A stretch of 35,960 bases of DNA from a virus. Taxonomy: Duplodnaviria > Heunggongvirae > Uroviricota > Caudoviricetes. The stretch lies in the IMG/VR virus record IMGVR_UViG_2541047679_000003. The stretch is one strand, 5' to 3'. The notes beneath the pieces were generated by a model. The model saw only the letters and a list, made by a program, of their open reading frames with translations, was not told where the DNA came from and made no database searches. Positions 1,403-30,286 of the stretch are shown one piece after another. The number at the start of each line of letters is the position of its first letter. Position 1 is the first letter of the stretch. The translations under genes and the position numbers were made by a program.

Positions 1403-2498
1403 CAGACACTCCAGTCATGTTAAGAGTGATTGCCGTACAGTTTGCCCATTCGTTTTCTGCCACCACCCGCAGTGCCGGTGTCACCAGTTCAACCTGGTAC
1501 ACCCCGGAAACGGACAATGCACTGATAATCTGGCTGGGGACAATATCGCGCCCCAGCGTGGCGGCACGTGATGCCACCCAGTTCTGTATGGCGCTGTTAG
1601 CGGCATCTTTTACAGACCTGGCATCCTGATCACGATAGATCGTAATCCTGGCTTCAATGGTGTAATCCACCTTCACTGGTGTTTTAGCCCGCACTGTATC
1701 AGTGAGTGGCCTGACTTTCTCATCAGAGCAGAAACTCTCTACCAGCGTGAGAACACCGCCGTCCGGCAGACCGGTACTGAGCAGCGGATACAGATCTACG
1801 GTCCCGGGAACCGGGGAAAGCACAGCAACATCGACAATGTTGGGATGGGCCTGCATGGCATGAAAGCGGTATGCGCCACGGCTTCCGGCATTGGTGAATG
1901 ACTCCGGGGCCAGCCTGATACGCTCCCGGAGCCTGTCATCGTCTTCCTGTTCTGAACCGCCGGAACTGGCCATCAGATTGCTCACCAGCAGGTTAACGTT
2001 ATCAATCTCATCGAGTAACTGACTGACCTGCGCAGGTTGCCAGCCGTTACCAGCGGTACCGGGTTCGGTACAGGTGGCCGTGACATTGACCAGCAGCAAT
2101 CCGGCCTTCAGTACCACATCTGTATCGGTGGCAAAAATAACGCTGTCGGAAGCGCTGACGCGGGTGCCTGCCGGGATCAGCACATCAATGGCCAGTGCCT
2201 CATCTACGGAGAACTGGAGCGTGGTGGTGGCAGGCTGCGCGGCAAGACGGTATACACCGACCAGTTCACCGAGGTAATCAATCATCGGCTCACGGGCAAA
2301 GGCGACCAGATTCTGCTTTGCTGCCTCCTGTACCGCAACCCTGACCAGCATTTCGCGATAGGCCCACAGATCAATCAGCAGACGTTCTGCCTGTGCCGGG
2401 TACAGCGTTTTGCCGGTATCCGCTTCATACTTCGCAATCATTTCTGCCGTGATTTTGTCGGCATCGCGTTCAATAAAATCGGGTTCTGTCAGCGCCAT
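1395..2498 (-). CDS. baseplate protein, J-like
   Basis: 367-aa ORF directly downstream of the gp25/W-like gene; baseplate J-like size and position. Confidence 0.75.
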   Translation of the reverse strand: MALTEPDFIERDADKITAEMIAKYEADTGKTLYPAQAERLLIDLWAYREMLVRVAVQEAAKQNLVAFAREPMIDYLGELVGVYRLAAQPATTTLQFSVDEALAIDVLIPAGTRVSASDSVIFATDTDVVLKAGLLLVNVTATCTEPGTAGNGWQPAQVSQLLDEIDNVNLLVSNLMASSGGSEQEDDDRLRERIRLAPESFTNAGSRGAYRFHAMQAHPNIVDVAVLSPVPGTVDLYPLLSTGLPDGGVLTLVESFCSDEKVRPLTDTVRAKTPVKVDYTIEARITIYRDQDARSVKDAANSAIQNWVASRAATLGRDIVPSQIISALSVSGVYQVELVTPALRVVAENEWANCTAITLNMTGVSDD

Positions 2499-2836
2499 AG
2501 CAGCTCCTGAGTCCGGGTCTGTCCGTCTGAGCCTTTCCAGCTCACCCGGAGCGTAAGATGTTCGCCGTCGACGGCGGGTTTAACTGACATAAGCTGGCAG
2601 CGGGGCTCCCAGCGCCGGATGGCATCGACGGATTCGCGCACCACATGCGGAATGGCCCGGTCTACAGGCCAGTCGATATAAAGATGCAGATTGCTGCCGA
2701 ACTCCGGGCGATGCGGGTCGCTGCCGCGGGGAGTCCGCAGGATAATTTGAATCGCCTGCCGGATATCATCCAGCCCCCGGACAATTTCGCCGGGAGCCTG
2801 CAGGGCTGGTTGCCAGAATACTGAGGTTGTTTTCAT
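2489..2836 (-). CDS. baseplate wedge protein, GPW/gp25-like
   Basis: 115-aa ORF with a PEFGS-type motif typical of the gp25/GPW family; ATG at 2836. Confidence 0.7.
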   Translation of the reverse strand: MKTTSVFWQPALQAPGEIVRGLDDIRQAIQIILRTPRGSDPHRPEFGSNLHLYIDWPVDRAIPHVVRESVDAIRRWEPRCQLMSVKPAVDGEHLTLRVSWKGSDGQTRTQELLWR

Positions 2837-2867
2837 GGGGGCAGTATTGCCCCCGTGCGGGAACGCT

Positions 2868-2877
2868 GATATTAAAG
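2868..2877 (-). promoter_or_regulatory. candidate late promoter motif upstream of the baseplate W-like gene
   Basis: Minus-strand CTTTAATATC in the 54-bp gap before the gp25/W-like gene, followed by a GGGGGCA/TGCCCCC hairpin. Confidence 0.3.
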
Positions 2878-2890
2878 GCGTTTAAAAAGC

Positions 2891-3487
2891 TCAGTGGGAG
2901 TGGTGGCTGGAGTTTTCGCCATCAGACAACATACTGCCCGTGGCATGGACATTCCCTTTAATCTCGATATTGCCATGGATGGTCGCGGTAACACCTTCAC
3001 CACCAGAACCCGCCATGCCTCCTTCGTAAATCAGCTTACCCCTGACACGCAGATCTCCGGTAAGTTCGGTTTCCGGTGCGTCAATCGTGGCTTTCTGTGT
3101 TTTCAATACCACATCAGCACCACACTCAATGACAATATGCTCAATGCCGCCCCGGATGATCAGAGTGTGCGTCTTCCGGTTGTAGCTGTACTCTGCACCA
3201 TCAGCAAACCGGGTTCCCCGGATATTTTTGTCACTGAACGGTGGTTTATCGACGTCTGAATACACCGCGCCCAGAATAACACCATCCTCGCCGTTGGCAT
3301 CGAGCAGCACCTCAACCTGCTCCCCCACGTCAGGGAGCCAGTAATCTTTGTTATCCTGGGTATTGCGCTGCAGCACGTTAAGCCAGTTTGTGCGCAGGTT
3401 ATCGCATTCAGGCAGACGAACGCGGGCCTGAACCCTGTCGGCATCAACGGCACTGACCGTACCGACCTGACGAGTGACACCAGTCAT
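2891..3487 (-). CDS. baseplate assembly/spike protein, gpV-like
   Basis: 198-aa ORF, N-terminal region resembling P2 gpV-type spike proteins, Gly-rich C-terminus. Confidence 0.7.
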   Translation of the reverse strand: MTGVTRQVGTVSAVDADRVQARVRLPECDNLRTNWLNVLQRNTQDNKDYWLPDVGEQVEVLLDANGEDGVILGAVYSDVDKPPFSDKNIRGTRFADGAEYSYNRKTHTLIIRGGIEHIVIECGADVVLKTQKATIDAPETELTGDLRVRGKLIYEGGMAGSGGEGVTATIHGNIEIKGNVHATGSMLSDGENSSHHSH

Positions 3488-4638
3488 TTTTTCTTCTCCT
3501 TAATCACCGTCGATGTACTGCCATCCGGGTGATAAACCGTGAGTTTCTGAGTTTTTTGTTTTTTCCCTCTTGTGACTGGCCCCCGTGCCACTTCCAGCTC
3601 TGTGGTGTAGCCGCTGTTACGGTCAAACGCATGGCGGGCAGTGGTTATGAGCCATGGCCCGGATAACTGCCCAAAACTCACCAGTTCAATTTTGTTGCCT
3701 GCTGTCAGTTGAGGTGTTCCCGTCAGCGTCAGGGAGCCGTTCTGCTGGTATTCGTTATGTCTGGCCAGTGCTGAATCCGCTTTAATCCGGGCACTGTCCG
3801 GGTCGCTGACGCGGCTGTTAACTTTAAGTGAGTCAGCGCTGGTAACCTTACCACCTTTGAGCTTTTTGTCGCTTTCACGGGTACCACCATCAGCTTCGTA
3901 GACGATCAGTTTTTTACTGCTGCTTTTCTGGTGTTTTACCTTTGCAGATTTATAGACCCGGTTGATGGTGTCACGCAGGGAAAAGCGGGCCACATCCTGC
4001 GGTTTTAACTGCCTGACCGGCTCCTGACTGCGCAGTGTGGCCAGATGAGAAAAAATCAGCTGGTCACTGACCACTTTCACTGCATAACCATACTCGCTGG
4101 CCAGCCGGCGCAGAAAACCCACGTCGGTTTCAGCATACTGGGTCACCCGGTCGATTCTGATGGACTCAATGCTGCCCACCAGTTTCAGCCGGTGCTTTCT
4201 GGCAATCCGCCCCGCAACAGCTGCCAGCGTGGTGTTCTCAAAACCACGACTGGTTTTAGTCCGCAGGGCACTGTTAACCGAGGTGGCCACCCCACGGATA
4301 GAAACAACGGAAGCGGGCGAACTCACTTCGATCTCGTCTATAGAGAACGTACCGCAGGACAGCAGCTTCTCGCCCTGATAGCCCATTTTCAGCGTCAGCG
4401 TGTCACCCTTGCCCGGATACCATTTATCCAGCCAGCGGCCATCGGTGTCGTCCAGCTCCACCTCAATGGTATCGGACTCATTTTTGATGTTATCGCTCCA
4501 GGTCACACGGGTGACATAAGGCGCGATATCAGAGGTGATGTTTTTCTGCAGATACCACAGAGTGAACACCGGTGTCAGCACATCGCTGACGCCGGTTAAC
4601 GCTGATGTGACTTGCGCAGTGCTGTTTATCTCAGCCAT
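3484..4638 (-). CDS. tail protein, P2 gpD / Mu P-like
   Basis: 384-aa ORF in the position of the late control D-family tail protein. Confidence 0.65.
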   Translation of the reverse strand: MAEINSTAQVTSALTGVSDVLTPVFTLWYLQKNITSDIAPYVTRVTWSDNIKNESDTIEVELDDTDGRWLDKWYPGKGDTLTLKMGYQGEKLLSCGTFSIDEIEVSSPASVVSIRGVATSVNSALRTKTSRGFENTTLAAVAGRIARKHRLKLVGSIESIRIDRVTQYAETDVGFLRRLASEYGYAVKVVSDQLIFSHLATLRSQEPVRQLKPQDVARFSLRDTINRVYKSAKVKHQKSSSKKLIVYEADGGTRESDKKLKGGKVTSADSLKVNSRVSDPDSARIKADSALARHNEYQQNGSLTLTGTPQLTAGNKIELVSFGQLSGPWLITTARHAFDRNSGYTTELEVARGPVTRGKKQKTQKLTVYHPDGSTSTVIKEKKK

Positions 4639-4841
4639 GGGGCAATATCCTCTTCTGTACGGGCTTCTTCAGCCTCAATCACCGGGATCAGTAACAACAG
4701 CCCGGAGGGCAGCACCGGCGTGATGGCCACGTGCGGATTGGCGGCAATAATCCGGGGATAGCCCAGCGGGTCACCGTAGTACTGCCATGCCAGCGAATCC
4801 CAGCGCTCTCCGTCACGGGTAACATGTTCAAGAAACATCAC
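4626..4841 (-). CDS. tail protein X-like
   Basis: 71-aa ORF with an RWDSLAWQYYGDP motif typical of P2 gpX-like proteins. Confidence 0.6.
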   Translation of the reverse strand: MMFLEHVTRDGERWDSLAWQYYGDPLGYPRIIAANPHVAITPVLPSGLLLLIPVIEAEEARTEEDIAPWLR

Positions 4842-5722
4842 ACACTCCTCGTCAGTATTCTGGCGGCCATTGCACTTAATCCCGGAGACATGCGGTTGAA
4901 TGCTGTGCCGACGGCGTTAAGCTGCCCGGAAACGGTATCCAGAGCACCTGCAATATTTCTTTTGTCCACACCACTCAGCGCAGACTGTGCCTGCTGTACA
5001 TACGTGGCTGCTTCGCTGGCTGTTCTGGCCAGACTGATGGCATCGGGCATGGATTCAGAGAGTGCGTTAAACGCCGGAACACTTTTCCCCAGAGCCCCGG
5101 AGATATTACCCAGTCCGCTCATCAGCCCCGGCACACGGGTCAGTGCGACAACGGGGTTATCCTTCATTTTCTGTGTCACCCGAACGGCGCTGATAGTGGT
5201 CTGGAGTACAGACTGCGCCTGTTTCGCATAGTTGACGCCGTTGCGGATGAACTGCGCCACCCCTGAAGGTGAAGGTATGGCACCGGAGACCGCCCCGACA
5301 CCCGGGAGCTTCGTGCGTATTGCCGGTGGTTGCAGAGGATTTTTCGGGTCACCGGTGTATTCCCGGAGAGACACGGTGGCACTGACAGCCAGCACGTTGC
5401 CGGTACTGTCAGTCTGCTCGCTGGTTGCAGTCACATCGGTGATCACGAACCAGCCGCGATAGTCACCGTTGCCGAAGACCAGCGCCAGTGCCTGATGGGC
5501 TTTCATGGCTGTTCGCAGTCTCGCCAGCTCCACATCGGGTACACAATAATGCTGATGGAAAACCAGAGTTATCTGGATTTCGTCCAGCCTGTCGCCGACG
5601 AACTGCAGACCAGGCTTACCCCCGATGCGGGCATGCTCCGCATAATCGACGCCGAACGTGGCCTCGAAGCCGTCCCAGTAGGTAATCAGCTCAAACTCAA
5701 TATCACCCAGTACGGCAAACAT
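4838..5722 (-). CDS. tail protein, P2 gpU / Mu N (DNA circularisation)-like
   Basis: 294-aa ORF immediately downstream of the tape measure gene; N-terminus gpU-like. Confidence 0.55.
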   Translation of the reverse strand: MFAVLGDIEFELITYWDGFEATFGVDYAEHARIGGKPGLQFVGDRLDEIQITLVFHQHYCVPDVELARLRTAMKAHQALALVFGNGDYRGWFVITDVTATSEQTDSTGNVLAVSATVSLREYTGDPKNPLQPPAIRTKLPGVGAVSGAIPSPSGVAQFIRNGVNYAKQAQSVLQTTISAVRVTQKMKDNPVVALTRVPGLMSGLGNISGALGKSVPAFNALSESMPDAISLARTASEAATYVQQAQSALSGVDKRNIAGALDTVSGQLNAVGTAFNRMSPGLSAMAARILTRSV

Positions 5723-8673
5723 CAGCGGTACTCCTTACGTTGTTTCTGAGCCAGCAGACGCTCCAGCATTTTTTCCAGCTCATGCAGACTCATATTCAGG
5801 GCACCAGTCAGTCCTGCAGGCGCTGTGGTTTCCCTGCCATTGAGGAAAAACTGAGGATTAAAGCTGACCTGGATACCACCAGACGTTCCACCGCCGGTTG
5901 CAGCTGCACCACGGCCTGAATATCCGGCAGCCAGGATTTCAGGCGAGGGGATACGGGGAACATCCGGTGTCATCTCATTTGCCAGACGTTGCCCTGGTAA
6001 AATCGATGCCCGGGTGGAGAGCGGAATAGCGGGCATGGAAGACAAACTATTGATTACGGCTCCGATCGCATTTTTAGCAGACGACATAAACCCATTGATA
6101 TCGGGCAACGGCATACTGAAGCGAACACCTGAAGTGTTATCCCGTATTTCTGGCCCCTGAATGCTCACGGGCATTCTGGGGAGCAGTTCACTGGCCATTC
6201 GCTGCCCGGCCAGAGCTGCAAGCGGAGTGGTCCGCTGCAGGCCAATGGCGGCCCCCTGCGCGATATTGTCACCAAAGCCCATAAACACGCGGCTCGGCGA
6301 ATGAATGCCCAGCTTTTCGCTGAACCAGCCACTGATGCTGTCGCCCATTCCGGTTACACTGGATTTGAGCGACTCCCATTTGTTTTTGATACCGTTAATC
6401 AGACCATCGACAAGATGGCCACCGAAGTCGGTAAACTTTGCCGGCAGATCAACACCAAGATATTTCAGCGCAGCTGCAAAGGCTTTATAGAGCAGACCTG
6501 CCGGCGACCAGTTAATCAGCAGCTTACCAGTTCCCGCGATACCGCCGTTAAAGGCTTCCTGAATGTCAGCCCAGCATTGTTTAAACCAGCTACTGATGCT
6601 GTCACCCATTCCGGTTACACTGGATTTGAGCGACCCCCATTTGTTTTTGATACCGTTAATCAAACCGTCGATAAGATGGCCACCGAAGTCGGTGAACTTT
6701 GCCGGCAGAGTAACGCCGAAATATTTCAGCGCAGCCGCAAAGGCTTTATAGAGCAGGCCTGCCGGCGACCAGTTAATCAGCAGCTTACCAGTTCCCGCGA
6801 TACCGCCGTTAAAGGCTTCCTGAATGTCAGCCCAGCGCTGTTTAAACCAGCCACTGACTGCCCCCCAGTTGCGGTAGATAAGGTAAGCTGCTGCCGCGAC
6901 AGCGGTGATAACGAGACCGATGGGATTCATCATCAGCGCTCGCCCAATCCAGAGAACGGCACGTGCAGCGCTCATAAAACCGCGAACGAGGCTGCCCGCC
7001 AGAACTTTGCTGAGTTTCAGTCCTCCGCTGGTCAGTCGGCTGAATCCAGTGACAAGCCAGCGTAATTTGCCACCTTCTCCGAGTGCGGTAGTCAGTCGAT
7101 GCCAGTTGGTCCGGAGTAAAACAGCAGTTTTCCAGACGTTCACAAAGGGGGAAATAAGGAGATTCAGCCCCAGTTTGAGACCAACAGTCGCTATCTTAAT
7201 CGCAAGGAGCGCACTGATGAGCTTAAAAGCCCCACTGACAAATTGCGGGTGAGTCGCCACCCAGTGTTTTGTCCCCTGAATGAGTGGGAGCAAGTCCTGA
7301 GTCAGAGAAATAAAAGATGGAGCTAATTGATCGCCCAGCGTAATTGCCAGATCGCGACTGCTGACCATAAGTGTTTTAGTGGCTTCAAGGGGAGATTTCA
7401 GCCGCTGATCATAAGCACTGGCAAGCAAATCGTTATCCGCAGCCCTGAGAGCACCGGCACGGATCTCTCGATATCTGTCCATGTTGGCCAGCATCGGGCG
7501 GATAAATGCCATGACCTGCATATCCGCGAACATATCGCCCAGACCAAAGTTTTTCGCCAGAGCCTGAAGTGCCTCATCTCTTGCCGTATCATTCTTTATT
7601 TTCATGGCTGATTTGAAGCCGGCCAGCGCTTCGGGGCTTTTGGCATTGAGGTAACGTTCTATAACACTCAACATCCCTTCAATCGGAGAGATCCCCGCAG
7701 CTTTATAACTCGCAATAGATCCCTGCAAATCAATACCCAGATCAGCAAACTGTTTCTGAGTATCGCGGGCAAAAATTTTGGTAAGAAAGTTTTTAAAATT
7801 ATTGGCTGCTTCGTCGGTGGAACCTGCACCGATTTTTGCTATCTGGAGACTGGCCCCGATTTCAGCAACAGCCTCTTTTCCACTGGCAATACCCGCCATC
7901 ATTGGGGCCAGGGACTGCATCCACTTGACCTGATCCGGGATTTCAAATGACCCCTGGTCACCGGCATAAGCCATAATATTCTGAACGGCACCAAAATCTC
8001 TGGCCGCGCCTTTCAGGGAGTTTTGCCAGACTGCGGCCACTTTTGCCCAGTCCTGAGCAGACGTGCGTGTTGCCGTTGCCGCGCGGGCAATATCCGGCAT
8101 CAGAAAACCGATATCTGACACATTATCAATATTGTCGCTGATGAGTGAACCCATCGCCTCCTGCAGCTCATCCTGATACTGATTGTATTTAAGCGCCCAG
8201 CCTTTTATCTGTCCGGCAAGTGCATCCCGCGTTTTATTGTCATATTTTGCGGTGATCGACATATCAATCATTTTGTCCTGAAAAGACATGGACTGCTGAA
8301 CGGCAGGGGAAACCGTATGATAAACAGTCTGTGCCATGCCATACGCTTCAATCCCCTGACCATACAGCGCCATGCGGTTAGCTTTCAGCGCATCACTGGT
8401 AGCGGATGCCGCTGACAGACGGCGCTGCTGGCGCTCAATTTGCTCCATGGTGCGGCTTACCCGCAGCAGCTCGCTGTTGAGATGCTGCATCCGGGAAGAA
8501 CCCAGTTGACCATAACGTTCTGTTGCACGGGTTAAAGCGTTCTGACGTTCCTGCAGGCGGCGTGAGGTATCGCTCAGGGAATCAAGCGCACGGCGGGTAC
8601 CGCTCATTGCAGAACGGAATGTGCTGCCAATCATCCCGCCGATAACAACGCCGACTGAAAACTGTCCCGACAT
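5722..8673 (-). CDS. tail tape measure protein
   Basis: 983-aa ORF, helical/low-complexity, between chaperone genes and baseplate genes; contains an internal 87-aa tandem duplication. Confidence 0.85.
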   Translation of the reverse strand: MSGQFSVGVVIGGMIGSTFRSAMSGTRRALDSLSDTSRRLQERQNALTRATERYGQLGSSRMQHLNSELLRVSRTMEQIERQQRRLSAASATSDALKANRMALYGQGIEAYGMAQTVYHTVSPAVQQSMSFQDKMIDMSITAKYDNKTRDALAGQIKGWALKYNQYQDELQEAMGSLISDNIDNVSDIGFLMPDIARAATATRTSAQDWAKVAAVWQNSLKGAARDFGAVQNIMAYAGDQGSFEIPDQVKWMQSLAPMMAGIASGKEAVAEIGASLQIAKIGAGSTDEAANNFKNFLTKIFARDTQKQFADLGIDLQGSIASYKAAGISPIEGMLSVIERYLNAKSPEALAGFKSAMKIKNDTARDEALQALAKNFGLGDMFADMQVMAFIRPMLANMDRYREIRAGALRAADNDLLASAYDQRLKSPLEATKTLMVSSRDLAITLGDQLAPSFISLTQDLLPLIQGTKHWVATHPQFVSGAFKLISALLAIKIATVGLKLGLNLLISPFVNVWKTAVLLRTNWHRLTTALGEGGKLRWLVTGFSRLTSGGLKLSKVLAGSLVRGFMSAARAVLWIGRALMMNPIGLVITAVAAAAYLIYRNWGAVSGWFKQRWADIQEAFNGGIAGTGKLLINWSPAGLLYKAFAAALKYFGVTLPAKFTDFGGHLIDGLINGIKNKWGSLKSSVTGMGDSISSWFKQCWADIQEAFNGGIAGTGKLLINWSPAGLLYKAFAAALKYLGVDLPAKFTDFGGHLVDGLINGIKNKWESLKSSVTGMGDSISGWFSEKLGIHSPSRVFMGFGDNIAQGAAIGLQRTTPLAALAGQRMASELLPRMPVSIQGPEIRDNTSGVRFSMPLPDINGFMSSAKNAIGAVINSLSSMPAIPLSTRASILPGQRLANEMTPDVPRIPSPEILAAGYSGRGAAATGGGTSGGIQVSFNPQFFLNGRETTAPAGLTGALNMSLHELEKMLERLLAQKQRKEYR
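6320..6841. repeat. tandem direct duplication (2 x 261 bp) inside the tape measure gene
   Basis: cccattccggttacact at 6344 and 6605 with flanking near-identical sequence; encodes two copies of ...WFKQ[R/C]WADIQEAFNGGIAGTGKLLINWSPAGLLYKAFAAALKY... Confidence 0.85.
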
Positions 8674-8748: not shown

Positions 8749-9006
8749 CTATGATTTGTCGCCGTACTCGCTTTTGATTTGCTCTTCAGCCTGCTCCAGC
8801 CACATCTCCAGATCGTCAGTATCGAGGGCATCAATCTCCCCCGGCTGAAACCGGAACCATCTCGCCAGCAGCCCCTGCGCCTGCGTCAGCGCCCTGGTTG
8901 CTCTCACCCATCCCCGTGATGAGCTGAAATCGTTTCTGTAACTGCAGGTAATCAGCCAGATCCATATTGTCGAGATCCTCCGGGAGAAGACCAGTACTGC
9001 GGGCAA
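8749..9006 (-). other. overlapping extension frame of the tail chaperone (candidate frameshift product C-terminus, E'-like)
   Basis: Frame is closed by a stop immediately upstream (9007-9009) and overlaps the 3' part of the chaperone gene; encodes an acidic helical tail ...FQPGEIDALDTDDLEMWLEQAEEQIKSEYGDKS. Confidence 0.4.
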
Positions 9007-9166
9007 TCAGCGGTTCGTCCCAGTCTGCCGGGTTTTTGCTGATTTTGCGCACCTGCTTCAGGTCTTTTACCGTCAGGCGTTTCAGTTCAACCAGCTCAAT
9101 TCTGGTGCCTGCAGCAGTGGTGAAGGGATAAGACAATTTAAAAGTATCGGATGGGGTCTGTGACAT
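8831..9166 (-). CDS. tail assembly chaperone, P2 gpE-like
   Basis: 111-aa ORF immediately upstream of the tape measure gene, ATG at 9166 with AGGAG SD; Gly/Ala-rich C-terminus. Confidence 0.55.
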   Translation of the reverse strand: MSQTPSDTFKLSYPFTTAAGTRIELVELKRLTVKDLKQVRKISKNPADWDEPLIARSTGLLPEDLDNMDLADYLQLQKRFQLITGMGESNQGADAGAGAAGEMVPVSAGGD

Positions 9167-9547: not shown

Positions 9548-10069
9548 TCAGCCCCCGATATTGATACGGTAGTCAGTCAGTTGATCAACACCGCCGACCC
9601 GGAAGATGTTGGCCAGATAGTCCAGTTGCAGCAGCTCTTCACCATCCAGTACCTGTCTGATATACGTGCAGGTGAAGCTACTGGAGAACTCGGCGTTCTC
9701 GTGCTGTTTGAACGTCCCCAGCGGGTTCTTCTTGAACATAATCGTCAGGAAGGTGACCAGCGGGATTTCGTCAATCAGCCCCTGCGAGCTGTAGCGCTGG
9801 ACGCTGGAACGACACTGCAGTGCCAGCGACCTGTACGGGTTCGCGGCAGACAGCATCGCATCGCGGTAAAAGCTGTTCCATTTGATTTCGCCTTCCAGTT
9901 TGTCAAAACCAGCCGGGAGTTCCACCTTACCCACCATCCCCAGCGCCTTGTGTTCCTGCATAATCATGGAGACATCGGGGAGTTTAACTTCCTCAGCCCG
10001 TCCCAGCAGGTTAGTACCATCCAGATAGATGTTGGCATTCGTGATGCGGTTTATCTCAATCTTTGACAT
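9548..10069 (-). CDS. tail tube protein, P2 FII-like
   Basis: 173-aa ORF directly downstream of the sheath gene. Confidence 0.75.
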   Translation of the reverse strand: MSKIEINRITNANIYLDGTNLLGRAEEVKLPDVSMIMQEHKALGMVGKVELPAGFDKLEGEIKWNSFYRDAMLSAANPYRSLALQCRSSVQRYSSQGLIDEIPLVTFLTIMFKKNPLGTFKQHENAEFSSSFTCTYIRQVLDGEELLQLDYLANIFRVGGVDQLTDYRINIGG

Positions 10070-11496
10070 CAGTTGCCCCCTTTCAGGGTTAACAGGTATT
10101 CCGAGGTGATCTCAGTCTCAAACGTCAGTCGCTCCAGCGGCGGTGGTGGCGTATATTTGTAGCTCAGCAACAGGTGCCCGGCGGCCAGCTCCGTCTCCGG
10201 ATTGCGGGCCGGATCAAACCAGCAACGGAAGCCCAGTACCGCACCATCACCAGTCATTTTGCGACCGTAGGCGTTGACCGACTCCGTCAGTGCATCAATC
10301 AGCGCCTGAGTAATCGGCATGTCGATGTACTGCTGGCTGAAATAACGAATGGACTCGTTGATCACATCACCGGTGCGGCGAACGTTCTCAAAGTTACGCA
10401 TATGGGTGACCGTTGGCCATGCTGCCGTCCGGTTACCCCACAGACGAAGGCCGCTGCCGTAACTGCTGAATACCGTGGTGATCCCCTGTTCGTTAAGCAG
10501 GTTCACCTCACTCTGCGGGTCATCAATCATCGCGGACAGCTGGCGCTCCACGCCGGTGATCCCCAGAATCTCCTGATTGGAGGATGACCACCAGTAGCCC
10601 TTGTCCAGATCGACTCTGGCACGCAGACCTGCTGCACGCTGGCTGAGCGGCTCCAGACGCTCTGTGTTTGTCACCGGGTCATATACCTTCACATGCGGAT
10701 AGCACAGACGGACGCGGTCGGAGCTGGTATTGAAGTTGATGGTGCCTTCCGGGCCACGACCTGCCAGAGCCTGTGCAAAGGTGGTACCGACAGGCGCATC
10801 AATGTAGGTTACCGCGCCCAGCTTCTCTGCCATGGCGATAAGCTCAACTGCGACACTCTTCTGGGTGCAGAACACCGGCGCAATCAGAATTTTGGCGAAA
10901 TAGCCGTACAGGTTGAAGCTGTCGTTAAGCAGCTTCATGCCGGTTCGGTTTCCGGCGCTGTTCACCCCGCCGATGATGTCCGCCGCAGTCACCTTCGACG
11001 GGTCCGCGTACTCATAGCTCACCTTCACGCTGCCACCGGCCTCAATAGCCTTGCCCAGGTTCGTGAGCACACCCGCCTGCGCATCAACACGGTAGTCCGT
11101 GTTCGCCGTGTGGGTGGTGCTGCCTTCACTGTTTTTCACCACCACATTAGCGACAACCGGATGCGCCAGTCTGGCCTGCCCTGTCGATTTGTCAAAGGTA
11201 ACCACCTCATCCTCGATCGCCGTTTTATGTTTCGCCGGGTCGAGGACGTTAATGACCAGAACGGTGCCTGCACCATGGTCATAAATCGCATCCAGCGCCT
11301 GCGGAATGGTAAAGCCGGTGAACTGGCTGCCAAATGCCGCTGCGTCTTTCTCAGACAGGCACTGTACCAGCGTATTGACATCCCCCATCGGGGCGGTACC
11401 AATCAGGCCAATAACGGCAGATTTCACCGTTTTAACCGGGCGGGCACCGTTTTCCACCTCAATGGTTTCGGGACCATGCAGATAGTTAGCTGCCAT
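10069..11496 (-). CDS. contractile tail sheath protein
   Basis: 475-aa ORF, ATG at 11496 with GGAGGA SD, sheath-tube gene order. Confidence 0.85.
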   Translation of the reverse strand: MAANYLHGPETIEVENGARPVKTVKSAVIGLIGTAPMGDVNTLVQCLSEKDAAAFGSQFTGFTIPQALDAIYDHGAGTVLVINVLDPAKHKTAIEDEVVTFDKSTGQARLAHPVVANVVVKNSEGSTTHTANTDYRVDAQAGVLTNLGKAIEAGGSVKVSYEYADPSKVTAADIIGGVNSAGNRTGMKLLNDSFNLYGYFAKILIAPVFCTQKSVAVELIAMAEKLGAVTYIDAPVGTTFAQALAGRGPEGTINFNTSSDRVRLCYPHVKVYDPVTNTERLEPLSQRAAGLRARVDLDKGYWWSSSNQEILGITGVERQLSAMIDDPQSEVNLLNEQGITTVFSSYGSGLRLWGNRTAAWPTVTHMRNFENVRRTGDVINESIRYFSQQYIDMPITQALIDALTESVNAYGRKMTGDGAVLGFRCWFDPARNPETELAAGHLLLSYKYTPPPPLERLTFETEITSEYLLTLKGGN

Positions 11497-27339: not shown

Positions 27340-29109
27340 ATGACCCCGGCACTGACTGAAAAACTGGTTGAAACAGCCCGCGCGGCACGTGACGCGGGGC
27401 ATGGTAAACGCGGTGCAATATACGACGCTGCCTGTGCTGAACTTGGCATGTCCCGCGCCACTCTGCTGCGCAGGCTGAAGGAGGTATCTGTGACTGATAA
27501 ACGCAAAAAACGCGCCGATGCCGGGCGCAGCGCCCTGACCCGCGACGAAGCCGCGCTGATATCTGCCACACTGCGTGAGGCCACCCGCAAGAACGGTAAG
27601 CGTCTCTATTCCATCGCAGATGCAGTGGAAACCCTGCGGGCTAACGGCTTTATCACCGCAGGCAGAACAGATGAAACCACCAGTGAGTTTTTCCCGTTGT
27701 CTGAAGATGCCATCAGCCGTGCTCTGCGTAACTATGGCCTGCACCCGGAACAACTGGATGCCCCTGCACCACATACCGAAGTGGCCAGTCTGCATCCCAA
27801 TCATGTCTGGCAGATTGACGCCTCACTCTGCACGCTTTACTACCTGAGCAATGGACATAAAGGGCTGCAGGTGATGGACAGCGCGAAGTTCTACAAGAAC
27901 AAGCCCGCTAACCTTGCCCGTATCGCCAGTGACCGCGTGTGGAGTTACGAGATTACCGACCATGCCAGCGGCTGGATTTACGTTGAGTATGTGACGGGCG
28001 CGGAATCAGGTGAGAACCTGTGTTCTGTGCTTATCAACGCCATGCAGGAGCGTGGCGGCGCAGACGTGCTGCACGGCGTGCCGAAAATACTCTATCTCGA
28101 CCCCGGCTCGGCAAACACCGCGGGTATGACGAAAAACATGTGCCGCTCACTGGGCATCGACCTGATAGCGCACAAGCCGCATAACGCCCGCGCCACCGGA
28201 CAGGTGGAAAAGGCGCGTGACATTATCGAACGCAAGCTGGAGCCGGGTCTGAAGTTCCGGCCGGTTCACAGTCTGGAAGAACTCAACGCGCTGGCCGCGA
28301 AATGGCGCAGCCACTTTAACGCCACGGCTGTTCACAGCCGCCACGGTAAAACCCGCACGGATATCTGGCTGAAGATTACTGCTGAGCAGCTGAAAAAAGC
28401 GCCTTCCGTTGAGGTATGTCGTGAACTGGCTGTGGCGGCACCAGAACTCCGCAAAGTCACGCCAAAACTTCGTGTCTCGTTCCGGGGCACTGAATTTGAC
28501 GTATCAACGGTACCGGGCGTACTGGTTGGTGAAAAACTGATGATTACCCGTAACCCATGGCGCAGCGATGTGGCACAGGTGGTTCTGACCGGTGAGGACG
28601 GCCACGAGACGTTCTTCCTGGTCGAAGAGGTCAGAAAGAACGAGTTTGGCTTTGCTGAAGGCGCGGCGGTATTTGGCGAAAGTTACAAAGCCCTGCCGGA
28701 AACCCCGGCACAGATGGCGGCAAAAGAAACCGAAGCGCTGGTTACCGGTACAGACAACGCCGCAGATGCAGCCGCCGCACGCAAGGCGAAGGCGCTGCCG
28801 TTCGGCGGGCGGCTTGACCCGTATAAACATATCGACGACACCACACTTCCGGCCTATATGCCGAAGCGTGGTCAGGCCTCTGACGTACGCGGGCCGCGCA
28901 CTGAACAACGTCCCATGACTCATGTGGAGGCCGCGAAAGCCCTGCGCGATAAGTTCAGCGCCGACGGCCTTACCTGGACGCCGGAACATTACCGCCAGTT
29001 AACGGCACAGTACCCGGACGGCGTACCGGAAGCCGCACTGGATGAAGTCATGGCCACGCTGACCACACCGGCCCGCAGCAGTGTTATCAGCATTGTTAAC
29101 GGCAACTGA
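27340..29109 (+). CDS. DDE transposase (Mu A-type / rve-like core)
   Basis: N-terminal HTH, then candidate DDE residues in ...VWQIDAS..., ...YLDPGSANTAG... and ...GQVEKARD... Confidence 0.85.
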   Translation: MTPALTEKLVETARAARDAGHGKRGAIYDAACAELGMSRATLLRRLKEVSVTDKRKKRADAGRSALTRDEAALISATLREATRKNGKRLYSIADAVETLRANGFITAGRTDETTSEFFPLSEDAISRALRNYGLHPEQLDAPAPHTEVASLHPNHVWQIDASLCTLYYLSNGHKGLQVMDSAKFYKNKPANLARIASDRVWSYEITDHASGWIYVEYVTGAESGENLCSVLINAMQERGGADVLHGVPKILYLDPGSANTAGMTKNMCRSLGIDLIAHKPHNARATGQVEKARDIIERKLEPGLKFRPVHSLEELNALAAKWRSHFNATAVHSRHGKTRTDIWLKITAEQLKKAPSVEVCRELAVAAPELRKVTPKLRVSFRGTEFDVSTVPGVLVGEKLMITRNPWRSDVAQVVLTGEDGHETFFLVEEVRKNEFGFAEGAAVFGESYKALPETPAQMAAKETEALVTGTDNAADAAAARKAKALPFGGRLDPYKHIDDTTLPAYMPKRGQASDVRGPRTEQRPMTHVEAAKALRDKFSADGLTWTPEHYRQLTAQYPDGVPEAALDEVMATLTTPARSSVISIVNGN

Positions 29110-29119
29110 GGAGGGAAAC

Positions 29120-30286
29120 ATGCTGGTACTGAAGCAGCAACTGAAAGAGGCCCGTATTCCACAGGCGGTGGTGGCGAGAGCTGTCGATGTTTCTGAGGCC
29201 ACGCTGGCCCAGATTGTGAATCATAACGCGTGGCCCCGCACCAGCCCCGGAGAAGTGCGCCGGCGTCTTGCGTCCTGGCTGGAAAGTCAGGGGATTGATA
29301 CAACGAAGAGTTTTGATGCTGTACAGGGCGCGGCCACGCCCCGTACAGCGGGTACCACAGATAAAACGAGCCTCAGTGAGGAAGAGAATATGTTACTCAA
29401 AAAACAGGTGTTATTTCCAGCAACCAAAAAAGCGTTTGGTCTTTTCCGTGACCCGTTCGCCGACGAAGCCATGCAGGGTTCTGATGATGTGTTCACCACC
29501 CCGGACATTCGCTACGTGCGTGAGGCGCTGTACCAGACAGCCCGTCATGGTGGGTTTATGGCCGTCATCGGTGAGTCCGGTGCGGGTAAATCCACGCTGC
29601 GCCGCGACCTGACTGAACGTATCAACCGCGAGAATGCGCCGGTAATTGTTATCGAGCCATACATCATCGCTATGGAAGACAACGATGTGAAAGGGAAAAC
29701 CCTGAAGGCAGCAGCTATTGCCGAAGCCATTATCAGTACCATCGCACCACTGGAAAGCATCAGACGCAGTCAGGACGCCCGTTTTCGCCAGTTGCATCGC
29801 GTCCTGAAAGACAGCAGCCAGGCGGGGTTCAGCCACGTTCTGGTGATTGAGGAGGCCCACAGTCTGCCCATTCCGACACTGAAACACCTCAAACGCTTTT
29901 TTGAGCTGGAGTCCGGTTTCAAAAAACTGCTGTCCATCGTGCTGATTGGCCAGCCGGAACTGGCGACAAAACTGTCTGAACGCAATATGGAAGTCCGTGA
30001 AGTCGTTCAGCGCTGTGAGGTGGTCGAACTTCTGCCTCTGGACAATAACCTTGAAGAATTTCTGACGTTCAAACTGCAACGGGCCGGTAAACAGCTGACG
30101 GACATTATGGACGCCGGTGCAGTGGATGCCATACGTGCCCGCCTGAGCAATCCGGGAAGTCACCGTAAAAATATGGTCAGCCTGCTGTATCCGCTGGCCG
30201 TCAGTAACCTGGTAATAGCCGCCATGAATCTGGCCGCTGAAATCGGGGTTCCACAGGTCAACGCTGACGTTGTCAAAGGGGTTTAA
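29120..30286 (+). CDS. transposition ATPase (AAA+, Mu B-like role)
   Basis: Walker A GESGAGKST, Walker B-like VLVIEEAH; immediately after the transposase; GAGGAGGG SD. Confidence 0.75.
   Translation: MLVLKQQLKEARIPQAVVARAVDVSEATLAQIVNHNAWPRTSPGEVRRRLASWLESQGIDTTKSFDAVQGAATPRTAGTTDKTSLSEEENMLLKKQVLFPATKKAFGLFRDPFADEAMQGSDDVFTTPDIRYVREALYQTARHGGFMAVIGESGAGKSTLRRDLTERINRENAPVIVIEPYIIAMEDNDVKGKTLKAAAIAEAIISTIAPLESIRRSQDARFRQLHRVLKDSSQAGFSHVLVIEEAHSLPIPTLKHLKRFFELESGFKKLLSIVLIGQPELATKLSERNMEVREVVQRCEVVELLPLDNNLEEFLTFKLQRAGKQLTDIMDAGAVDAIRARLSNPGSHRKNMVSLLYPLAVSNLVIAAMNLAAEIGVPQVNADVVKGV

Follow-up and report, generated by a model that had tools for sequence, protein, structure and literature searches.

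What does a large tandem repeat mean in a gene that sets the length of a phage tail, and is the number of its units fixed? This question is raised by a 35,960-nucleotide (nt) stretch of viral DNA, IMG/VR record IMGVR_UViG_2541047679_000003 (here called the window), which is identified below as prophage Phi2 of EC958, a strain of the pandemic Escherichia coli sequence type 131 (ST131) clone; Phi2 is a transposable phage of the BcepMu-like kind and has a P2-type contractile tail. Its tape measure gene, the equivalent of P2 gpT and Mup42, occupies positions 5722 to 8673 on the minus strand, encodes 983 amino acids (aa), and is the only long open reading frame (ORF) at the repeat. The protein matched Pfam PF10145 PhageMin_Tail (E value of 1.3e-20; 74.6 bits, where the cut-off is 33.2), phrog_28 "tail length tape measure protein" (E value of 1e-135), and many other tape measure PHROGs, and the RefSeq label in the listed identical genomes is "phage tail tape measure protein." An earlier note on this DNA had placed a duplication in a minus-strand tape measure gene, and the Pfam match, the PHROG match, and the gene order all agree with that assignment. 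Within the gene, a conserved module of 87 aa has truly been duplicated in tandem and in frame. Close relatives carry one, two, or three copies of the module, and some of their units are hybrids of the two found in the window, which strongly bears out the earlier view that recombination can expand or contract the repeat.

Analysis with Tandem Repeats Finder placed the array at 6323 to 6857 (period of 261 nt, 2.0 copies, 93% matches, 0% indels, score of 958), and a repeat finder reported two head-to-tail copies without a spacer at 6323 to 6583 and 6584 to 6844 (94%). The period is a multiple of 3, and the tape measure ORF stays open across the array. In the frame of the gene, unit A extends on the minus strand from 6849 to 6589 (aa 609 to 695, WFKQRWADIQ...DSISS) and unit B from 6588 to 6328 (aa 696 to 782), each encoding 87 aa. 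Pairwise alignment of the two copies showed 16 substitutions in 261 positions and no gaps, or 93.9% nt identity; at the protein level 81 of the 87 residues are the same, and the six changes from unit A to unit B are R5C, F44L, T47D, I60V, G72E, and S87G. A repeat of such length and identity cannot have arisen by chance. Both repeat searches, the alignment, and the ORF frame thus confirm the 261-bp in-frame duplication described in the earlier note, which had the right array but set it at 6320 to 6841, 3 nt off from 6323 to 6844, and gave a slightly low identity of roughly 90 percent. The 87-aa unit was also considered as three 29-aa subrepeats, but this was rejected, as the three thirds have no similarity to one another.

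Two features of the array are relevant to how it may have changed. First, a 79-nt stretch (unit nt 14 to 92) is identical on the minus strand in unit A (6758 to 6836) and unit B (6497 to 6575). An uninterrupted run of this length has a probability of about 0.04 given 16 random differences, and it is likely the zone of a crossover or gene conversion. Second, the array is bounded by a 13-nt direct repeat, TCAGTGGCTGGTT on the minus strand, which encodes ..SGWF. Its upstream copy (6845 to 6857) lies at the boundary between the N-terminal flank and unit A and accounts for the extra 13-nt partial third copy (0.05 copy) in the Tandem Repeats Finder output, and its downstream copy (6323 to 6335) lies at the boundary between unit B and the C-terminal flank. 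The internal A/B junction, TCAGTAGCTGGTT (6584 to 6596, minus strand), carries one G-to-A change relative to TCAGTGGCTGGTT, which converts Gly to Ser.

Copies in relatives were counted by aligning the unit to nine fetched loci (L002 to L010). Compared to the two copies and 983 aa of the ST131 Phi2 gene in the window, E30 (L004) and IPCEC48 (L010) have one copy and 896 aa each, and EC13 (L005), AVS0973 (L006), SCU-101 (L007), and EC32 (L008) have three copies each in intact genes of 1070 aa. More diverged relatives have a single copy: Klebsiella phage KP12 (L003; 821 aa, unit 87% identical), phage Phi06_2974 B (L002; unit 86% identical), and IAL7250 (L009; 825 aa, unit 87% identical). The possibility that all relatives share the same two copies with normal tail length, raised earlier as a refutation, is contradicted by relatives with one, two, or three. 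All of the one-, two-, and three-copy alleles examined keep the reading frame. Among the best 120 cluster representatives from the protein database, the length classes of 896, 983, and 1070 aa contain exactly one, two, and three unit matches, respectively, and none of these representatives has four copies.

A census was then made of the 634 to 636 complete E. coli genomes that carry the gene family, with fractions estimated from record spans and evenly spaced samples. Record spans and piece counts were used instead of query coverage (≥80%), which was dropped as a measure because off-diagonal pieces get joined. By this estimate, about 65 to 70% of the genomes have two copies, mostly from the ST131 clone, and about 18 to 22% have three. 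Single-copy alleles in close backgrounds were found in 16 genomes, 13 of the E30 type and 3 in the window's own background, and about 48 further genomes have diverged single-copy relatives. Complete genomes with one copy include IPCEC48 (AP026794), TUM14759 (CP128877), AVS0947 (CP124460), E30, and DLI.5a, and 2016C-3878 is another with three. A synthetic four-copy query matched only three-copy E. coli genomes. A search of plasmids returned five records, mostly mis-assigned chromosomal or prophage DNA.

To compare the alleles, each unit was typed at its variable sites, with types x and y for the 5′ segment (sites 21 to 69) and types alpha and beta for the 3′ segment (sites 93 to 259). The window allele is [x+alpha][x+beta], unit A being x+alpha and unit B x+beta. 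The AVS0973 and EC32 alleles are [y+alpha][x+alpha][x+beta], the EC13 and SCU-101 alleles are [y+alpha][y+alpha][x+beta], and the E30 allele is [y+beta]. The middle unit of AVS0973 is thus composed of x, the 5′ type of unit 2, and alpha, the 3′ type of unit 1, i.e., a B-5′/A-3′ hybrid, and the single units of E30 and IPCEC48 are the reciprocal A-5′/B-3′ hybrid, with the 5′ part of unit 1 and the 3′ part of unit 2. The IPCEC48 gene is the window gene minus a precise 261-nt deletion, its unit consisting of A (nt 1 to 44) and B (nt 45 to 261). The 120 protein representatives show the same polarity. First units have R5 with the F44/A-or-T47/I60/G72/S87 set, last units have C5 with L44/D47/V60/E72/G87, the middle units of three-copy proteins mostly have C5 with a first-unit body, and most single units have R5 with a last-unit body.

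These unit haplotypes fit unequal homologous crossing-over. In a two-copy [y+alpha][x+beta] allele, an unequal crossover that pairs unit 2 with unit 1 and exchanges between sites 69 and 93 would produce the x+alpha middle unit of AVS0973, and the reciprocal single-copy product of the same crossover would be y+beta, as seen in E30. The expansion in EC13 has a different middle unit, which needs a different exchange point and thus an independent event. As for the window allele, it may have arisen by conversion or by further contraction of an AVS0973-type array. Since the duplication, the array has behaved as a small copy-number-variable locus, repeatedly changed by unequal homologous crossing-over between misaligned units, and exchange or gene conversion has probably also made the 5′ 79 nt of the two window units alike.

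How often such changes occurred was assessed with 88 full-length representatives clustered by their non-repeat flanks (≤4 aa differences). Six flank clusters hold more than one copy-number state, and parsimony on a neighbor-joining tree gave about 19 to 20 copy-number changes, both figures being biased upward because short-read collapse mimics deletion and recombination moves arrays between backgrounds. The complete genomes alone contain at least two distinct expansions (the EC13 and AVS0973 types) and at least two distinct contractions (the E30 and IPCEC48 types).

The ancestral state can be read from the diverged relatives. KP12, Phi06_2974 B, and IAL7250 have one copy, and this outgroup unit is roughly equidistant from alpha and beta (32 to 37 differences), which argues that one copy is ancestral in the wider family. 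The single-copy alleles of close relatives were ruled out as the ancestral form. The E30 unit shares derived bases at sites 114, 132, 135, and 178 only with beta, whereas alpha and the outgroup agree at these sites; ancestry would need four reversals, and E30 is therefore a contraction product. IPCEC48 is, apart from its deletion, identical to the window gene. Thus, of the one or two copies that the earlier note had considered as ancestral, the alignment of relatives points to one, and the single-copy alleles of close relatives are secondary contractions.

The origin of the duplication probably lies in the 13-nt direct repeat. TCAGTGGCTGGTT (SGWF) bounds the module in single- and multicopy alleles alike and is spaced 261 nt apart in the single-copy gene; the outgroups have a weaker version of it, with only TGGTTCAA in common. 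In a single-copy ancestor that had TCAGTGGCTGGTT on either edge of the module, at a distance of 261 nt, slippage or illegitimate recombination between the two 13-nt repeats would have occurred once, and this flanking repeat probably seeded the first duplication. The derived AGC codon (Gly to Ser) recurs at every interior junction examined in the two- and three-copy alleles, and this points to one founding duplication with homologous exchanges thereafter. After the duplication, the copies diverged into the alpha and beta types under purifying selection.

The number of synonymous substitutions per synonymous site (dS) between A and B is 0.168, compared to 0.012 to 0.093 among alleles of the clade and 0.296 for the outgroup. 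This intermediate value means that the duplication is younger than the split from KP12 and IAL7250 and older than the diversification of the sampled E. coli alleles, with the caveat that gene conversion can lower the apparent age. The copies are thus diverged and not very recent, as had been supposed. The ratio of nonsynonymous to synonymous substitution rates (dN/dS) is 0.21 between the copies; between alleles, the remainder of the gene gives about 0.26. Both copies are thus maintained as protein.

What the copies do to the tail can be predicted from better-studied phages. The length of the tail is set by that of the tape measure protein, and tails lengthen or shorten in proportion when duplications or deletions are engineered into the protein (PMC5099701; PMC3271669). 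An estimate of 1.5 Å per residue matched the measured tails of phiCbK (PMC3556154). At this value, each unit would add 87 × 1.5 Å, or about 13 nm, roughly three tube and sheath rings and slightly above the order of 10 nm given in the earlier note, and the predicted tails would be about 134, 147, and 160 nm for the 896-, 983-, and 1070-aa proteins, respectively. Lambda gpH and T4 gp29 show a comparable dependence of tail length on tape measure length, and the tube and sheath rings are about 4 nm high. The account as a whole, in which a real duplication of single origin became copy-number variable by unequal crossing-over and is predicted to act on the tail as a ruler, is considered highly likely.

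Duplication and loss within tape measure genes are known, and the type of event seen here is not a new mechanism. The lambda gpH (Katsura 1987) and TP901-1 tape measure (Pedersen 2000; Mahony et al. 2016, PMC5099701) proteins likewise have in-frame internal duplications or deletions, and tail length follows in them. However, those are laboratory constructs in noncontractile siphophages, whereas the Phi2 case is a natural one-, two-, and three-copy polymorphism in a P2-type contractile tail. The repeats studied by Belcaid, Bergeron & Poisson 2011 (PMC3271669) likewise vary naturally in the number of tandem units, with reconstructed duplications and losses. The units in that study and in TP901-1 and p2 are 11 aa (or 11-11-18; 11/18 aa) with periodic Trp/Phe, whereas the Phi2 unit is 87 aa and lacks aromatic periodicity; the autocorrelation of aromatic residues in the protein at lags of 11, 18, 22, 29, and 40 equals expectation (z of −0.8 to 0.5). 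What is new is a well-documented instance in a contractile-tailed, clinically widespread prophage, with a repeat that is demonstrably dynamic and bears the signature of unequal crossing-over.

The module itself is more widely distributed than its repetition. When the 87-aa unit was searched against 1.84 billion representatives, the module was found in 591 proteins (50%-identity cluster representatives) at an E value of ≤0.001 and 40 to 55% identity. At least two near-complete tandem copies were present in 28 of the best 150 of these, with periods of 76 aa (the commonest), 83, 87, 105, and 113 to 114 aa and up to four copies; in these uncultured tape measure proteins, successive copies are 31 to 72% identical where in register. 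For example, the uncultured P0122 (4 × 76 aa), P0124 (2 × 87 aa), and P0123 (3 × 114 aa) have a homologous module head to tail. These repeats mostly have other periods than Phi2 (76, 83, 105, and 113 to 114 aa; 87 aa in P0124) and are old, whereas the Phi2 copies are 93% identical and still changing in number. Among the 136 isolated phage records with the module, mostly P2-like or BcepMu-like phages of Burkholderia, Ralstonia, and Pseudomonas, only Escherichia phage PhiKM has more than one copy, and the other 135 have one detectable copy each. BcepMu, phiE202, phiE12-2, phiX216, RSA1, RSY1, and Pseudomonas phage Dobby have the module at the same place in the tape measure protein and the same tail gene order, but with one detectable copy each compared to two in Phi2, and BcepMu itself has only part of the module in common with Phi2.

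Several points weigh against the proposed account, and they bear on three other explanations. The first concerns the ruler effect. The effect of the one-, two-, and three-copy alleles on tail length is purely inferred, and the 1.5-Å rule may not be exact for a conserved module rich in Gly and Pro. Far from being a featureless helical spacer, the module has 18 positions, many occupied by Gly or Pro, with a conservation of at least 80% across 130 diverse relatives (W6, F13, G15, G16, N26-W27-S28-P29-x-G31-L32-x-Y34, G45, P49, F52, G56, G62-L63, and G66). These give the motifs NWSPxGLxY, LPxxF, FG, and GLxxG, and the module has no Pfam model of its own. An AlphaFold2 model of aa 596 to 800, made without an alignment, was unusable (mean predicted local distance difference test score of 37.9, predicted template modeling score of 0.20). 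Instead of a length unit, the module may be a folded element or one that interacts with the membrane or the hub, so that copy number would alter DNA delivery or assembly, and tail length would change in proportion little or not at all. Its retention at 40 to 55% identity across the 591 representatives, with conserved Gly, Pro, and aromatic positions, is not what a mere spacer usually shows; the module lies immediately after two hydrophobic segments (aa 478 to 508 and 579 to 600; Kyte-Doolittle, 19-aa windows of ≥1.6); purifying selection acts on both copies (dN/dS as above); and other lineages have retained old copies, repeated two to four times with other periods. However, in TP901-1 the tail became shorter by an amount proportional to the number of deleted residues, whether the deletions lay in the repeat region or in a hydrophobic region (PMC5099701). 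Searches of Pfam and PHROG detected no enzymatic or other known domain in the block, and a search of solved structures in the PDB found no relative of it. On this balance, a nonruler module is unlikely.

A second explanation is that the copy number is a neutral length polymorphism, with no phenotype, in a prophage that no longer makes virions. The s1-ST131 region ("prophage 2"), to which the Phi2 element corresponds, was scored incomplete by PHASTER (Tantoso et al., PMC9205054), and a literature search on PhiKM returned only phiKMV-type papers, with no electron microscopy or induction data found. But in the window, every gene examined for the tail, baseplate, head, portal, terminase, and transposition functions has an intact ORF and matches its family strongly, and a 99.3% identical sequence has been deposited as phage PhiKM. 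Furthermore, dN/dS values of 0.21 to 0.26, in the units as in the remainder of the gene, indicate that the protein is still under selection, and the frame is kept in all the alleles of different copy number. A silent polymorphism in a defunct prophage is thus quite improbable.

The third explanation is an artefact of assembly, in which the second copy in the window is an expansion error or every difference in copy number among relatives comes from wrongly collapsed or expanded assemblies. Assemblies and annotations are indeed disturbed by the repeat. In the PhiKM record (L001, PQ738613), a 100-N gap at 3853 to 3952 falls exactly inside the repeat and the tape measure gene is split into two coding sequences in GenBank; the N run has a B-type unit next to it at one end and the initial 85 nt of an A-type unit at the other. 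Because the gap falls exactly there, short-read assemblies break at the repeat. In the three-copy genes (AVS0973, 1900 to 5112; SCU-101 and EC32, 1639 to 4851), the RefSeq Prokaryotic Genome Annotation Pipeline (PGAP) calls two pseudogenes that are "incomplete, partial in the middle of a contig," although each gene split in this way is one uninterrupted ORF of 1070 codons. These pseudogene calls are apparently artefacts of annotation caused by the extra repeat unit.

A short-read collapse would also yield the same hybrid unit as a true deletion. In the large protein database, many of the single-copy proteins derive from short-read assemblies, in which collapse mimics the A-5′/B-3′ hybrid, and part of the apparent contraction frequency may be an artefact. 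The three single-copy "complete" genomes in the window's background could be collapses in hybrid assemblies, and recombination between prophages that moves arrays could inflate the count of independent events. For the window itself, however, the tape measure gene is 100% identical in all the matches listed among 371 complete E. coli genomes at ≥99%. These come from many laboratories and include EC958, JJ1886, and many strains labelled O25b:H4-ST131, and EC958 was assembled from PacBio reads (EC958 paper). Since the two-copy gene is identical in these genomes, the PacBio-assembled EC958 included, an assembly expansion in the window is excluded, and the single true copy that the earlier note had envisaged as a refutation was not found in these assemblies. 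With three-copy alleles of two different internal structures in roughly 120 to 140 complete genomes, single-copy alleles in two backgrounds in 16 complete genomes, and 16 A/B differences by which long reads separate the copies easily, an assembly artefact is extremely unlikely as the general explanation.

The series of alleles has practical consequences. One-, two-, and three-copy arrays in near-identical prophages are a rare natural series and a ready-made experiment on the ruler model in a contractile tail. Such tails of the P2 type have far fewer ruler data than lambda or TP901-1, and the series would test the 1.5-Å-per-residue rule on a conserved module rich in Gly and Pro. Calls of prophage "intactness" for the ST131 element are unreliable at the tape measure gene, where the repeat breaks or collapses short-read assemblies and misleads the NCBI annotation pipeline. 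A broader proposal is that tail length is naturally polymorphic within one species, even within the decades-old ST131, and that the 87-aa module is a "unit of length" flipping among one, two, and three, with selected copy numbers, and a general tuning device of P2-like and BcepMu-like tails. This proposal is regarded as rather doubtful. If it were true, unequal crossing-over would change the copy number fast enough for this to be visible among near-identical prophages, selection, for instance by the thickness of the host capsule or O antigen, would favor particular copy numbers, and the module repeated elsewhere at periods of 76 to 114 aa would be a general device for tuning tail length.

Two plus-strand ORFs opposite the repeat are not genes. 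The ORF at 6305 to 6490 (61 aa) lies inside unit B, the ORF at 6563 to 6751 (62 aa) lies inside unit A, and the distance from one stop codon to the other is exactly 261 nt, which means that the two ORFs are the same antisense reading of both copies. The substitutions between A and B are 9 synonymous and 7 nonsynonymous in the minus-strand tape measure frame, compared to 8 and 8, 1 and 12, and 7 and 9 in the plus-strand frames. Because the changes are mostly synonymous only in the minus-strand frame, the two ORFs are antisense shadows of the repeat, as the spacing of the stops and the substitution pattern together bear out and as had been proposed. A further plus-strand ORF of 254 aa (6301 to 7065), antisense across the repeat, was taken as a shadow ORF too.

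The surrounding genes place the repeat in a complete tail module. On the minus strand, the order is sheath, tube, gpE-type chaperone, tape measure, gpU, gpX, and gpD, and the same order is found in relatives (RefSeq). The contractile tail sheath protein (FI type; PF04984 and PF17482) is encoded at 10069 to 11496 and the tail tube protein (FII type; PF04985, E value of 3e-53) at 9548 to 10069. The gpE-type tail assembly chaperone (8831 to 9166; PF10109 Phage_TAC_7, E value of 5.5e-21) lies directly upstream of the tape measure gene. Directly downstream lies the gpU-type tail protein gene (4838 to 5722; PF06995 Phage_P2_GpU, E value of 7e-39), the start of which overlaps the tape measure stop codon; gpD, assigned by a family match, is at 3484 to 4638. 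Baseplate V, W, J, and I genes complete the P2-type contractile tail and baseplate module, and a Mu-type portal gene (Portal_Mu, PF06074) and head genes lie upstream of the tail module. The strand opposite to the tail genes carries an rve (DDE) transposase gene (27340 to 29109) and an AAA_22 AAA+ ATPase gene (29081 to 30286), both recognized by Pfam, and a Dam methylase gene. Together, the Mu-type portal and head genes, the DDE transposase and AAA+ ATPase, and the P2-type tail have the makeup of a BcepMu-like transposable phage. In E30, the chaperone gene (4349 to 4684 of the fetched locus) is annotated as a pseudogene with an internal stop beside a separate small "GpE family" coding sequence; the stop may be a real defect or a mis-annotated programmed frameshift (gpE/E+E′).

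The element can be identified from its end and from its tape measure gene. Bases 1 to 19 of the window, AAACCAAGGTAATTGAGGA, are the reverse complement of part of TCCTCAATTACCTTGGTTTAGGAGAA, the published 26-bp 5′ invertase crossover site of Phi2 at EC958 1007582 to 1007607 (EC958 paper), and the tape measure gene is identical to that of EC958, where it lies at 1013310 to 1016261. From these two matches, the window is identified as Phi2. Because the window starts inside the crossover site, the invertible 3′ end of the Phi2 tail-fiber gene lies just outside it. The nearest phage record is PhiKM, classified in Bcepmuvirus, with a tape measure gene 99.3% identical. The Phi2 element is the "prophage 2" that resembles region s1-ST131 in Tantoso et al. 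(PMC9205054). An identity with the published "ST131 tailocin" prophage was considered and rejected, since the window matches s1-ST131 and not the tailocin-like s2-ST131.

A second tandem repeat was found near the start of the window at 177 to 593 on the minus strand, with a period of 168 nt (56 aa), 2.5 copies, and 84% matches, in an ORF that runs off the window start. It sits in the N-terminal, stable part of the tail-fiber gene. Its motif, TAKGxVQLSSAxxSxSExxAATPKAVKAAYDLAxGKAPxSHTHPWSQITGVPAASL, corresponds to the Phage_fibre_2 repeats described for Phi2 in the EC958 paper.

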